Positions 57,230 through 63,077 of a DNA stretch of 64,000 nucleotides are shown piece by piece; the stretch's first letter is position 1, and each line of letters opens with the position of its first letter. Made by a program: the position numbers and the translations under genes. The notes under the pieces are model-generated. The model had not been told where the DNA came from. It searched no databases and saw only the letters and a list, made by a program, of their open reading frames with translations. The stretch is taken from NCBI RefSeq assembly GCF_054482595.1, contig NZ_CM137008.1; one strand, 5' to 3'.

Positions 57230-58236
57230 ATAACTGTTACAGCATTGTTAATTATTACCTGCCAGCTTTTAGGTGACTATTCATTCGCACGCCTATAGTC
57301 TGCAAATCTATCGATTATCGCAGTAAAAAACTTATCAATGAGTTTAGTTGTTGCACCGAGGTTTTAACTTTCCGCATCACTTTTCACGTACAGTATTTTA
57401 CTGACTCCGTGTTTCTTAAATTCTATTGTATGCTGACAGATTTTCCCACTTGCGTCGTCACGACTGGAGCAACACTGGATACTGCTGATCCCATTTCGCT
57501 TCCAGTTCATCCAGCACCGTTTCTGCGGCTTCTTTCGACCCCGCGCGATATACCGGTTTCAGATCAGCCATAAAAGCTTTATGGTCATTTGAGGCCACGT
57601 ATTTAATCGAGTTACTGATTTGGTGAATGACGCACAACTGAACCTCTGTCTGCGGATAAATGCTGTTTATCGCCTCCGGGAAGCCGGTCAGCCCGCGCAC
57701 GCAGGCGATCAGGATGTCTTCAATGCCCCAGTTTTACAGGTCGCTTAATATAGACAGCCAGAAGTTAGCGCCTTTACTTTCTTATAGATACCGGCCCAGA
57801 GTTTCTTTCTTGCCTGCCAGATTCAGCGCCAGAACGGTATAAACCGTTTTGCTCTGATAACGGCCATTCTCACGGACTTTATAGTGAATACGTTCAGCCA
57901 GACGAAGGGGTAAACCTTTTCCAGCGGGTGCTGTTGCCACTGTTTTAGTTCAGGGGTAACTTTATCGTACTACACTGATGGTGGCGGTTGACATGCTGAA
58001 AGCATATAAATCTTCGAACTCTCGGCTAATGTCCTGGTAGCTAATCCCCTGCGCAAACAGCAGAATGATCTTGCGTTCAATAATAAATGCGATGATGCTC
58101 GCAAAATCCTTGCCGATCAACCCACCAGATGCGGCGGTTCTACGTGGATCGCGATTTAACTATCACTGCTAGTTATTTGTTCGAAAAGCCCATAGCTTTC
58201 TATTTATACTCAAGCTTCGCGCCATCAGATAGCTAT
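57230..58236 (-). pseudogene. Decayed IS256-family (Mutator-type) transposase remnant, AT-rich, with frameshifts and stops; upstream part cut by IS5
   Basis: Minus-strand frames give ...IIERKIILLFAQGISYQDISREFEDLYAFSMSTATISVV, ...VYPFVWLNVFTIKSV..., ...GLTGFPEAINSIYPQTEVQLCVIHQISNSIKYV... (80-aa ORF 57458-57700), typical of IS256-type transposases but broken. Confidence 0.6.
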
Positions 58237-59431
58237 GGAAGGTGCGAACAAGTTCCTGATATGAGATCATCATATTCATCCGGAGCGCATCCCAGAGGGA
58301 CATCATGAGCCATCAACTCACCTTCGCCGATAGTGAATTCAGCACTAAGCGCCGTCAGACCCGAAAAGAGATTTTCCTCTCCCGCATGGAGCAGATTCTG
58401 CCATGGCAGAATATGACCGCTGTCATCGAGCCGTTTTATCCCAAGGCGGGCAATGGCCGACGGCCCTATCCGCTGGAGACCATGCTGCGTATTCACTGCA
58501 TGCAGCATTGGTACAACCTGAGCGACGGTGCCATGGAAGATGCCCTGTACGAAATCGCCTCCATGCGCCTGTTTGCCCGATTATCCCTGGATAGCGCCCT
58601 GCCGGATCGCACCACCATCATGAATTTCCGCCACCTGCTCGAGCAGCATCAACTGGCCCGTCAATTGTTCAAGACCATCAATCGCTGGCTGGCCGAAGCA
58701 GGCGTCATGATGACCCAAGGCACTTTGGTGGATGCCACCATCATTGAGGCACCCAGCTCTACCAAGAACAAAGAGCAGCAACGCGATCCGGAGATGCATC
58801 AGACCAAGAAAGGCAATCAGTGGCACTTTGGCATGAAGGCCCACATTGGTGTCGATGCCAAGAGTGGCCTGACCCACAGCCTAGTCACCACCGCGGCCAA
58901 CGAGCATGACCTCAATCAGCTGGGTAATCTGCTTCATGGTGAGGAGCAATTTGTCTCAGCCGATGCCGGCTACCAAGGAGCGCCACAGCGCGAGGAGCTG
59001 GCCGAGGTGGATGTGGACTGGCTGATCGCCGAGCGTCCCGGCAAGGTAAAAACCTTGAAGCAGCATCCGCGCAAGAACAAAACGGCCATCAACATCGAAT
59101 ACATGAAAGCCAGCATCCGTGCCAGGGTGGAGCACCCGTTTCGCATCATCAAGCGGCAGTTCGGCTTCGTGAAAGCCAGATACAAGGGGCTGCTGAAAAA
59201 CGATAACCAACTGGCGATGTTATTCACCCTGGCCAACCTGTTTCGGGTGGACCAAATGATACGTCAGGGGAGAGATCTCAGTAAAAACCGGAAATAACGC
59301 CAGAAATGGTGGAAAAAATAGCCTAAATAGGCTGATTCGATGTGTTTGCGGGAAAAAAATCGGCCCAGATCCGCGAAATTTTAATCAGCGAGTCTGCTTG
59401 GGAAGAAATGACCTGCTTATTCGCACCTTCC
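58237..59431 (+). mobile_element. IS5-type insertion sequence (1195 bp)
   Basis: Ends GGAAGGTGCGAACAAG (58237) and CTTATTCGCACCTTCC (59431); encodes IS5 transposase; flanking 4-mers differ (ctat vs taag). Confidence 0.93.
58305..59297 (+). CDS. insH: IS5 transposase (InsH-like), 330 aa
   Basis: [40 protein letters not shown]...; DDE family; C-terminal 15 residues differ from K-12 InsH as recalled. Confidence 0.93.
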
Positions 59432-59575
59432 TAAGCGTTATCCCGAAGAGTTTAAAATTGAAGCAGTCAAACAGGTTGTTGATCGCGGTTATTCTGTTGC
59501 CAGCGTTGCAACACGTCTCGATATCACCACCCACAGCCTTTACTCCTGGATAAAGAAGTACGGTCCGGATTCTTC
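59432..59575 (+). pseudogene. Fragment of an IS3-family OrfA (HTH) gene trapped between IS5 and IS3
   Basis: Plus-strand frame reads KRYPEEFKIEAVKQVVDRGYSVASVATRLDITTHSLYSWIKKYGPDSS, a typical IS3-family OrfA HTH; no start codon or IS ends. Confidence 0.5.
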
Positions 59576-59744
59576 TGATCCTACCCACGTAATATGGACA
59601 CAGGCCTAAGCGAGGTTCTGGTTTTCAAATTGTTCCGGACTGAGGCCGCCACACCAACTGTGCCGCCGCCACCGATTGTAATCACATTCGATATAATTAA
59701 ACTGAACCGCCCCGGGTTTCCTGGAGAGTGTTTTATCTGTGAAC

Positions 59745-60958: not shown

Positions 60959-61011
60959 CCTGTTTACTCTTTCTCAGGAAGTTTAGTCTCCAGGATTCCC
61001 GGGGCGGTTCA

Positions 61012-61784
61012 AACACCGTTGCCCGCATTATTTCCCGGCTGATAAAGTGTTCTCCATGGATACATTCCACTTTCAGCGAATGAAAGAAGCTTTCCACGCA
61101 GGCATTATCGTAGCAGCAACCTTTTGCGCTCATACTTCCACGCAGATTATGCCGCTTCAGTTGCGCCTGATAATCTGCTGAACAGTACTGGCCTCCACGG
61201 TCCGTGTGAACGATAACGTTCCGGGGCCTCTTACGCCGCCATAGCGCCATCTGCAGGGCATCGCAGGCCAGTTGCGCCGTCATGCGTGGCGACATTGACC
61301 AGCCAATAACGGCACGTGACCACAGGTCAATGACCACTGCCAGATACAGCCAGCCTTCATCTGTACGTAAGTACGTGATGTCTCCTGCCCACTTCTGGTT
61401 CGGGCCACTGGCGTAAAAATCCTGCTCCAACAGATTTTCTGACACAGGCAGGCCGTGTGCGCGGTAGCTGACCGGGCTGAACTTCCGGGAGGCCTTTGCC
61501 CTCAGTCCCTGACGGCGCAGGCTTGCCGCCACGGTTTTTACGTTAAAGGGGTAACCCTGAGCACGCAGTTCATCCGTCAGGCGTGGGGCACCGTAACGCT
61601 GTTTTGACCGGGTAAAAGCCGCGAGGACAACGCTGTCGCAGTGTTGGCGGAACTGCTGACGCGTGCTTATCCTTGTCCGCCGCTGACACCACGTATACCA
61701 GCCGCTGCGGGCCACCCGGAGCACGCGGCACATTGCTTTGATGCTGAACTCAGCCTGATGTTTTTCAATAAAGACATACTTCAT
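61012..61784 (-). pseudogene. insF: IS3 orfB (insF) truncated at its 3' end by the IS629 insertion
   Basis: Translation [40 protein letters not shown]... matches IS3 InsF up to ...REIMRATVF then runs into IS629. Confidence 0.88.
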
Positions 61785-62020
61785 TTCAGGCGCTTCGCGA
61801 AGTATGTCGCGGCCTTTTGGAGGATAGCCAGCTCTTCATCCCGTTCTGCCAGCTGGCGTTTGAGACGTGCAATCTCGGTAGACATCTCCAGTTCACGTTC
61901 AGAAGACGTCTGCTGATTTTGCTGTTTACTGCGCCAGTTGTAGAGCTGTGATTCATACAGGCTGAGTTCACGGGCTGCGGCAGTAACACCGATGCGTTCA
62001 GCAAGCTTCAGGGCTTCACT
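61781..62020 (-). pseudogene. insE: IS3 orfA (insE) 3' fragment, 5' end replaced by IS903
   Basis: Minus strand encodes ...SEALKLAERIGVTAAARELSLYESQLYNW... up to TGA overlapping insF ATG; upstream end abuts IS903 IR at 62021. Confidence 0.8.
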
Positions 62021-63077
62021 GGCTTTGTTGAATAAATCAGATTTCGGGTAAGTCTCCCCCGTAGCGGGTTGTGTTTTCAGGCAATACGCACGCTTTCAGG
62101 CATACCTGCTTTCGTCATTTTGTTCAGCGCTCGTACCAGGGCCATAGCCTCCGCAACCTGACCATCGTAGTCACGCAGCGTCAGTGAACCCCCGAACAGC
62201 TGTTTTACCCGGTACATCGCCGTTTCCGCTATCGAGCGACGGTTGTAATCTGTTGTCCATTTCCACCGCGCATTACTCCCGGTCATTCGCTGATTAGCCA
62301 CTGCACGGTTACGGTCTGCATATTCACCGGGCCAGTAACCCGCACCTTTTCGGGGAGGGATAAGCGCGCTGATTTTCTTACGCCGCAGTTCATCGTGACA
62401 TAGCCGGGTATCGTAAGCGCCATCGGCGGCGGCTGACCTGATTTTCCGGTGGGTTTGCCGGATTAACCCGGGGAAGGCCTCTGAGTCCGTAACGTTGTTC
62501 AGCGACAGGTCAGCGCAGATGATTTCATGTGTTTTACTGTCAACGGCGAGATGCAGCTTACGCCAGATACGGCGGCGTTCCTGGCCATGCTTTTTGACTT
62601 TCCACTCGCCTTCACCGAAGACCTTCAGCCCGGTGGAATCAATTACCAGGTGTGCGATTTCACCCCGGGTGGGCGTTTTGAAACTGACATTAACCGACTT
62701 TGCCCGCCTGCTGACACAGCTGTAATCCGGGCAGCGTAGCGGAACGTTCATCAGAGAAAAAATGGAATCAATAAAGCCCTGCGCAGCCCGCAGGGTCAGC
62801 CTGAATACGCGTTTAATGACCAGCACAGTAGTGATGGCAAGGTCAGAATAGCGCTGAGGTCTGCCTCGTGAAGAAGGTGTTGCTGACTCATACCAGGCCT
62901 GAATAGCTTCATCATCCAGCCAGAAAGTTATGGAGCCACGGTTGATGAGGGCTTTATTGTAGGTGGGCCAGTTGGTGATTTTGAACTTTTGCTTTGCCAC
63001 GGAACGGTCTGCGTTGTCGGGAAGATACGTGATCTGATCCTTCAACTCAGCAAAAGTTCGATTTATTCAACAAAGCC
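62021..63077 (-). mobile_element. IS903/IS102-type insertion sequence (IS5 family), 1057 bp
   Basis: 18-bp inverted repeats GGCTTTGTTGAATAAATC at 62021-62038 and 63060-63077; flanking 9-mers differ (ggcttcact vs gttacccgc). Confidence 0.93.
62077..63045 (-). CDS. IS903-type transposase (322-aa ORF)
   Basis: ORF ...KQKFKITNWPTYNKALINRGSITFWLDDEAIQAWYESATPSSRGRPQRYSDLAITTVLVIKRVFRLTLRAAQGF... matches IS903/IS102 transposase as recalled. Confidence 0.92.
   Translation of the reverse strand: MKDQITYLPDNADRSVAKQKFKITNWPTYNKALINRGSITFWLDDEAIQAWYESATPSSRGRPQRYSDLAITTVLVIKRVFRLTLRAAQGFIDSIFSLMNVPLRCPDYSCVSRRAKSVNVSFKTPTRGEIAHLVIDSTGLKVFGEGEWKVKKHGQERRRIWRKLHLAVDSKTHEIICADLSLNNVTDSEAFPGLIRQTHRKIRSAAADGAYDTRLCHDELRRKKISALIPPRKGAGYWPGEYADRNRAVANQRMTGSNARWKWTTDYNRRSIAETAMYRVKQLFGGSLTLRDYDGQVAEAMALVRALNKMTKAGMPESVRIA

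Follow-up and report, generated by a model that had tools for sequence, protein, structure and literature searches.

The analyzed DNA, a stretch of 64,000 nucleotides (nt) of contig NZ_CM137008.1 (assembly GCF_054482595.1), is hereafter called the window. It carries a cluster of insertion sequences (ISs), i.e., IS1, IS5, IS3, IS629, and IS903, together with fragments of an IS256-family and of an IS3-family element, and this work concerns the way in which the junctions of these elements were formed. The cluster, part of a tRNA-Ser-associated genomic island of Escherichia coli, has a Klebsiella-type O-antigen module on either side (wbbY-wbbZ on one, an rfb(2a)-like galactan cluster on the other), and the 8 kb around it are 100% identical to the chromosome of E. 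coli SMS-3-5 (NC_010498.1). A coordinate of that record equals the window position plus 2,220,001, and positions beyond 64000 were taken from it.

In the RefSeq annotation, the genes follow each other in the order: hsdM, IS1B, a gene for a 740-amino acid (aa) glycosyltransferase, a pyruvyl transferase gene, an IS256 pseudogene, a frameshifted ISKpn26, a transposase fragment, IS3 pieces around an IS3-family element, IS903B, GT2, GT4, another glycosyltransferase gene, glf, a gene for a DUF4422 protein, rfbB, and an ABC permease gene. The ends of the elements were found by exact searches for terminal repeats and by reading of the junctions, and both bore out the order and the ends given in an original prediction, which had been made without database searches. 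The names of the elements rest on the RefSeq annotation, their lengths, and their end sequences. The following features were distinguished:

41373 to 41460: tRNA-Ser(GGA) gene at the start of the island, beside infA.
51641 to 53212, plus strand: hsdM, gene of a type I restriction-modification methylase, whose reading frame terminates within IS1.
53191 to 53958, minus strand: IS1 (IS1B-type), 768 bp, both ends intact, assigned by the Prokaryotic Genome Annotation Pipeline (PGAP) to the IS1B family with a programmed frameshift.
53959 to 58236: Klebsiella-derived wbbYZ block, recognized by its identity to Klebsiella sequences.
54062 to 56284, minus strand: intact gene of a two-module glycosyltransferase (GT4 and GT2) of 740 aa, WbbY-like.
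56382 to 57191, plus strand: intact gene of a polysaccharide pyruvyl transferase (PS_pyruv_trans), WbbZ-like.
57422 to 58081, minus strand: piece from the interior of an IS256-family transposase gene, lacking both termini and disrupted by frameshifts and stop codons.
58237 to 59431, plus strand: IS5/ISKpn26-like element, 1195 bp, both ends intact.
59432 to 59575, plus strand: fragment (144 bp) of an IS3-family orfA, starting 8 nt past the orfA ATG.
59576 to 59702, minus strand: right end of IS3 (nt 1132-1258, including the right inverted repeat), with one AAC copy at 59700-59702.
59703 to 61011, minus strand: IS629/IS1203-type element of the IS3 family, 1309 bp, intact, inside IS3 orfB.
61012 to 62020, minus strand: IS3 nt 126-1131, with the second AAC copy at 61012-61014 and orfA cut at codon 21 by the IS903 junction.
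62021 to 63077, minus strand: IS903B, 1057 bp, both 18-bp ends exact, encoding the IS5-like element IS903B family transposase WP_000654812.1 (RefSeq/PGAP).
63078 to 64000, minus strand: gene of a GT2 glycosyltransferase in the rfb(2a)-like cluster, running past the window end.

Reading of the flanks confirmed the earlier observation that IS1, IS5, and IS903 are not bordered by target-site duplications. The 9-bp duplication is missing from IS1 (flanks cgaggtgca and caaaaatac) and from IS903 (ggcttcact and gttacccgc), and the 4-bp one from IS5 (ctat and taag). The original prediction, which dealt with positions 57230 to 63077, was right about the missing duplication of IS1, although the element itself lies outside this interval. 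All three are nevertheless regular members of their families. IS1 has the length, the terminal repeats of ~23 bp, and the InsA/InsB frames with a programmed frameshift that are proper to its family. IS5 has terminal repeats of 16 bp, GGAAGGTGCGAA(C/T)AAG, and a single transposase gene; it differs from an intact ISKpn26 copy by four substitutions and two single-base deletions (PGAP describes it as a frameshifted member of the ISKpn26 family), and a 1-bp deletion alters only the last five residues of the transposase. IS903 agrees with the reference length of 1057 bp and has the 18-bp terminal inverted repeats GGCTTTGTTGAATAAATC. As a control, two simple IS903 insertions in strain TUM1881 were inspected and both have perfect 9-bp duplications; such a duplication is the mark of a simple insertion, so its lack says nothing against the identity of the element.

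The middle of the cluster is a nest of IS3-family sequences. The 144-bp orfA fragment, which IS5 and the inserted IS3 cut at its two edges, originates from a 1231-bp IS3-family element with TGAATCGCCACGG ends, ten copies of which are present in strain S1-CAM-01-C. Alignment to the K-12 IS3A showed that the IS3 spanning 59576-62020 retains only nt 126-1258: at its junction with IS903, the first 125 nt have been lost, and with them the left inverted repeat and 20 codons of orfA, and orfB is split by IS629, so that IS3 is not a complete element, while over the 850 nt of the K-12 copy compared the remnant is 99.8% identical. The element at 59703-61011, which PGAP calls only "IS3 family", is presumably IS629 (reference ~1310 bp); it has TGAACCGCCCCGGG ends, orfA-orfB with a frameshift (a pseudoknot is annotated), and a clean 3-bp AAC/AAC duplication. 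Removal of this element and one AAC in silico restores a complete 288-aa IS3 OrfB. The claim that IS629 is a simple and probably recent insertion was therefore upheld in its first part, whereas the second found no support, as all 29 genomes in which the orfA fragment abuts IS3 also have IS629. It is also worth mentioning that an IS3/IS629 junction at the same orfB position (window 59576-59800) occurs at ~97% identity in unrelated genomes, e.g., in CH10268, with 13 places, and this may point to a hot spot for insertion or to the spread of a nested element.

Genes on both sides of the cluster are truncated. IS1 starts 5 nt ahead of the native stop codon of hsdM, which, compared with an intact hsdM-hsdS-hsdR island, has lost its last codon only, and hsdS and hsdR, located downstream of hsdM in intact islands, are absent at the locus; an apparent 8-bp reach of the hsdM homology into IS1 turned out to be a partial chance match. 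At the other edge, as had been noticed before, IS903 stands between a truncated IS3 orfA and a truncated GT2 gene. Relative to the intact 413-aa gene of plasmid pF3_13_1_3-1, GT2 lacks its last 112 bp (37 codons), and its frame runs 31 nt into IS903 before it ends; the loss of the 37 C-terminal residues leaves the catalytic domain (residues 10-140) untouched. On three plasmids, which lack this IS903, the intact GT2 (413 aa) is followed by an acyltransferase gene, and this gene is absent from SMS-3-5; the GT2 tail and the acyltransferase gene occur solely on plasmids of this kind. A stretch of ~260 bp between wbbY and the acyltransferase gene on the plasmid (L007, 8006-8269) matches ~2,800 E. 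coli records, often at plasmid position 1559-1822, and is a widespread repeat.

The block between IS1 and IS5 is of Klebsiella origin. It shows 99.1% identity to the chromosome of Klebsiella pneumoniae strain 176 (CP125156.1), where its flanks are native and free of ISs, and it recurs at 99.8-99.9% identity on at least 15 plasmids of Klebsiella, Raoultella, and E. coli. In strain 176, both ends of the block pass into non-IS DNA, one across ...gccgggaact/CAAAAAT... and the other across ...GATAGCTAT/gtcttatgaaaaaac, beyond which an HNH endonuclease gene is reached. On the plasmids, the same ends of the block already abut the two ISs: in pKPN-a41, the inner junctions coincide exactly with those of the window, IS1 being represented by 8 bp of its end (CCATTACC) and IS5 by its first 284 bp; in pRHBSTW-00995_3 and pRHB33-C12_3, IS1 is complete, IS5 is again represented by these 284 bp, and IS903-like copies bracket IS1, the block, and the IS5 piece. 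The inner junctions IS1/53959 (IS1/CAAAAATAC, common to the window and Klebsiella plasmids) and 58236/IS5 are unchanged on plasmids of Klebsiella, Raoultella, and E. coli; therefore, they were inherited and not formed in this genome. The outer flanks of IS1 (hsdM) and IS5 (IS3-family orfA) are E. coli island DNA. The missing duplications of IS1 and IS5 thus also reflect the joining of foreign DNA, beyond any deletion.

The 740-aa protein and the pyruvyl transferase fit the published wbbY-wbbZ pair, an assignment tested against generically annotated Klebsiella DNA. In the literature, wbbY and wbbZ encode the O1 antigen (D-galactan II) polymerase and a pyruvyltransferase, lie between transposable elements, and in E. 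coli are found near an rfb2a cluster, the latter being deleted at times (PMC10629545). The Klebsiella O1-type set (window 53959-58236, and 63078 to ~2,290,950 in the SMS-3-5 record) is additional to the strain's own O-antigen locus. The glycosyltransferase of 740 aa in the window and in Klebsiella has 804 aa on pF3_13_1_3-1, and a 192-bp stretch of the window (54133-54325) aligns twice to this plasmid (L007, 7504-7828). The difference may go back to a tandem duplication or deletion in which no IS took part.

The IS256-family fragment belongs to the same block. It has 86% DNA and up to 85% protein identity to an E. coli IS256-family gene, over 57422-58081 only (extent determined by local tblastn against a relative); no IS256 termini could be identified around these positions, and the other parts of 57230-58236 belong natively to the Klebsiella wbbYZ block and are not IS sequence. 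It was not IS5 that cut the fragment, since both termini are missing in the K. pneumoniae chromosome too, where no IS5 is present at that place. The original prediction described the remnant as AT-rich, sharing the low GC content of the glycosyltransferase locus, and proposed that the two had arrived together. The first statement was contradicted, the fragment (57461-58081 as annotated) having 48.5% GC versus 39.1% and 35.4% in the glycosyltransferase and pyruvyl transferase genes, respectively; the second holds, because the block of the plasmids and of Klebsiella includes the fragment, i.e., owing to synteny and not to GC content. A breakpoint at 57314, where an IS903-like element (96.7% identity to the window copy, no duplication) is located on pF3_13_1_3-1, was considered as an IS256 terminus or a shared ancestral IS903 site and rejected; the Klebsiella sequences are collinear with the window across 57314, so this breakpoint belongs to pF3_13_1_3-1 only. 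In MMC-J-0020 (NZ_CM128549.1), an extra IS903B was found inside the IS256-fragment region (equivalent of window 57192-58336), which aligns in two pieces and is ~1.07 kb longer.

For the comparison with sister genomes, their variants were mapped onto window coordinates by exact flank matching, with SMS-3-5 serving as the undeleted form. At the 62021 end of IS903, the flanking DNA ends at the following positions:

SMS-3-5: 62020, in IS3 orfA.
EC21: 61715, in IS3.
TUM1881: 54440, in wbbY.
CREC-2: 53331, in IS1.
WCHEC050613: 52669, in hsdM.
W444: about 52013, in hsdM.

At the 59431 end of IS5, the flank starts as follows (first four nt given), with the 58236/IS5 junction unchanged in each of the four deletion genomes:

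SMS-3-5: 59432, TAAG.
fS54a: 63870, CTAG.
B1W1: 64105, TTAA.
WCHEC025985: 65011, ATAA.
XDL: 76213, CTTG.

Five endpoints at one end of IS903 and four at one end of IS5, combined with an invariant opposite junction (63077/63078 between IS903 and GT2 is constant in all five deletion genomes), are what adjacent deletions should leave. In ET120, a deletion proceeds from the opposite IS5 end (58237) to 55059 (target TTAG). The same genome has two IS903 copies in opposite orientation, between which 18.5 kb are inverted; AATTGAATG/CATTCAATT form the inverted target repeats. In strain C21 and seven similar genomes, another IS5 copy, in inverted orientation, sits within the end of IS1; the segment between the two copies is inverted, CTAA/TTAG form the inverted target repeats, and both IS5 copies are identical to that of the window. 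Four of the six new IS5 junctions lie at the canonical YTAR target, the local frequency of which is 1% (p about 1e-6), and this excess indicates that the transposase chose the sites. Deletions and inversions at the same IS ends are thus observed in sister genomes and are ongoing. The comparison with related genomes, which had been proposed as a check, supports the deletion reading by nested deletions as well as by two duplicative inversions.

These data indicate, with high probability, that two kinds of IS-driven event, namely the joining of the IS1-wbbYZ-IS5 unit to island DNA and one-ended adjacent deletions, account for the junctions that lack duplications. The notion that the region was reshaped by IS-mediated deletions is supported by the nested sister deletions at 62021, 59431, and 58237 and by the truncated GT2, IS3, and orfA fragment; as the sole cause, however, deletion does not suffice for IS1 and IS5, whose inner junctions pre-existed on plasmids. 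In the proposed scenario, an IS256-family element would have decayed to an internal fragment beside wbbYZ in Klebsiella, and IS1 and IS5 would have come to flank the block on plasmids. The resulting unit may then have joined the E. coli island at the hsdM/hsdS boundary, beside an IS3-family element, probably by IS1- or IS5-mediated fusion or recombination. IS3 presumably inserted into orfA of the IS3-family element, and IS629 subsequently into IS3 by simple insertion. IS903 most likely inserted in the 3' end of GT2, leaving the 63077/63078 junction, and would then have deleted leftward from its 62021 end, removing the GT2 tail, the acyltransferase gene, and more, as far as IS3 orfA. Such one-ended deletions may proceed by intramolecular transposition, or by an equivalent two-step route, outward from an intact IS end, and would remove one copy of the original duplication together with the adjoining DNA. 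We infer the succession of events in the SMS-3-5 lineage, as well as the action of transposase, and not of RecA, at its particular junctions, from these end products.

Several points weigh against this scenario. Neither IS5 flank of SMS-3-5 (CTAT, TAAG) is a canonical YTAR, and two IS5 deletion endpoints in sister genomes (ATAA, CTTG) are non-canonical as well. The ancestral simple junction expected for IS903 (GT2 tail and GTTACCCGC/IS903, with the 9-bp target) is absent from 5426 E. coli genomes, so that "insertion, then deletion" at the SMS-3-5 junction is to be read as a probable course of events. TUM1881 has the same IS903/GT2 junction and a native Klebsiella left flank on its wbbY fragment, with no IS1 junction, which a single linear history fails to explain. 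Moreover, the final structures would look alike whether they arose by intramolecular transposition or by homologous recombination after a second insertion.

The last point leads to the rival explanation that survives best, according to which RecA-dependent homologous recombination between identical IS copies (deletion, inversion, plasmid integration), and not intramolecular transposase action, made the junctions. Insertion of a second copy and recombination would yield every product seen, including the C21 and ET120 inversions, and many copies of IS1, IS5, and IS903 are present in these genomes and plasmids. The occurrence of the IS1-wbbYZ-IS5 unit on plasmids favours its entry via recombination between ISs, and in 30EVA2 (L003, 15079-22352) two direct IS903 copies without duplications bracket a foreign segment of 7.3 kb between IS3 and GT2. 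However, a transposase-made second copy would still be needed at each deletion endpoint, and these endpoints are all in unique sequence; therefore, this explanation becomes a two-step variant of the transposition one. The intermediate with a second direct copy was seen for none of the ten deletions, and the YTAR targets at the new IS5 junctions show the involvement of transposase. As a separate account of the junctions, RecA-dependent recombination is rather doubtful.

Assembly collapse or a misjoin across the repeats had been named as a finding that would refute the original prediction, and the locus is indeed dense in repeats present many times per genome (median of 9 places per genome). However, the same 8 kb recur in 15 other complete assemblies from different laboratories and hosts at 100.0%, and in two more at 99.9%; the orfA-fragment/IS3/IS629 double junction is common to 29 genomes and the 58236/IS5 junction to 28, and both inner junctions of the block recur on Klebsiella plasmids. 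Because of the identical 8 kb in many independent assemblies and of the double junction, misassembly is, for all practical purposes, excluded. Simple insertions whose duplications decayed by point mutation, mentioned in PMC11708052 as a general possibility, are exceedingly improbable here, as the flanks are unrelated (hsdM versus the wbbY-downstream sequence, the Klebsiella block versus IS3-family orfA, and IS3 orfA versus GT2), their intact versions continue differently in the comparators, and the elements are nearly identical to active copies.

Two further arrangements were tried and rejected. Derivation of the SMS-3-5 structure from that of the plasmid by one IS903 duplicative inversion fails, as it would require the other end of IS903 to face GT2, and 30EVA2 is not a cointegrate with a 9-bp direct repeat, as its flanks do not match. 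The 30EVA2 segment encodes an outer membrane protein, a phosphoethanolamine transferase, and an integrase, and contains a 3' piece of an EcoR124-type hsdR, an IS1A, and an IS200 fragment.

As regards the chromosomal setting, the tRNA-Ser end of the island lies beside infA (serW side) in SMS-3-5 (window 41373-41460), and beside ghrA (serX side) in WCHEC050613 and W444 (L010 and L012, positions ~1659-2403); the far end of the island lies beside clpA in ET120 (L024, 30184-34001). The differing serW/serX neighbours suggest a large inversion or an exchange between two tRNA-Ser sites in some lineages. In TUM1881 (L011, 11590-12944), the rfb cluster is located near dsdC/evgS and not in the tRNA-Ser island, and a different IS1 lies 97 bp beyond the wbbY flank. 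An IS4 element is present between ycaL and aroA in the core chromosome (window 7127-8473).

All the elements described are known, and the finding, although real and largely correctly read from the beginning, is an ordinary one, with no new element or mechanism. Missing duplications due to adjacent deletion or to recombination between IS copies are textbook knowledge, recently reviewed (PMC11708052), and it was published, without a mechanism, that E. coli can carry wbbYZ close to rfb2a and that some isolates have deletions there (PMC10629545). The new detail is limited to which IS ends made the wbbYZ/rfb(2a) deletions. The locus offers a natural worked example, in which a resident IS pair has produced one-sided, nested deletions as well as two duplicative inversions among wild E. 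coli genomes, and these events explain the loss of wbbYZ or of parts of rfb(2a) in some isolates with Klebsiella O1-type genes. For annotation, it exemplifies that a missing duplication identifies an element as the breakpoint of a rearrangement, and that the origin of the DNA is revealed by comparators and not by composition. At least 12 independent events among about 55 genomes were found, in which the resident IS5 and IS903 repeatedly delete wbbYZ or parts of rfb(2a). Their frequency could be driven by selection, through phage or immune pressure; alternatively, it could result from an intramolecular bias of these copies, e.g., of the IS5 transposase with its altered C-terminal tail. That the locus works in nature as a switch, by which E. 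coli would turn a second O antigen (Klebsiella O1-like) on or off or change its type, seems improbable to us.

Deletions and cointegrate formation mediated by IS1 are its classical behaviour. The IS1 of the window resembles the products of such events in being intact, with unrelated DNA on each side, no 9-bp duplication, and hsdS and hsdR gone; it differs in that no nested series anchored at it was found and that its inner junction is inherited from Klebsiella plasmids. Similarly, adjacent deletions and duplicative inversions are the classical intramolecular transposition products of IS903 and Tn903. The IS903 described here shares with them the intact IS end, the missing 9-bp duplication, one fixed and one variable junction forming a nested series, and, in the inversion, a second inverted copy with an inverted 9-bp target repeat. 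Unlike the classical examples, these are natural variants among wild genomes and not laboratory-selected ones, and the mechanism is deduced from the end products. Adjacent deletions are described as common for IS903 (PMC11708052).

Compared with the published K. pneumoniae wbbY-wbbZ locus (PMC10629545), for which neither IS junctions nor particular IS ends as the cause of deletions are given, the locus analyzed here has a 99-100% identical block, the 740-aa GT4 and GT2 protein, and the pyruvyl transferase; in both, the block adjoins a wzm-wzt-wbbM-glf-GT-GT4 cluster and is affected by deletions in some isolates. Finally, large IS5-associated deletions without target-site duplication are known in E. 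coli, e.g., in E. coli C (PMC11708052). As there, an IS5-family element edges a multi-kb deletion and no duplication is present, the endpoints in our case being mostly YTAR. In E. coli C, a new IS copy is found at the deletion, whereas in the locus described here the resident copy stays in place and the deletions radiate from it to both sides.

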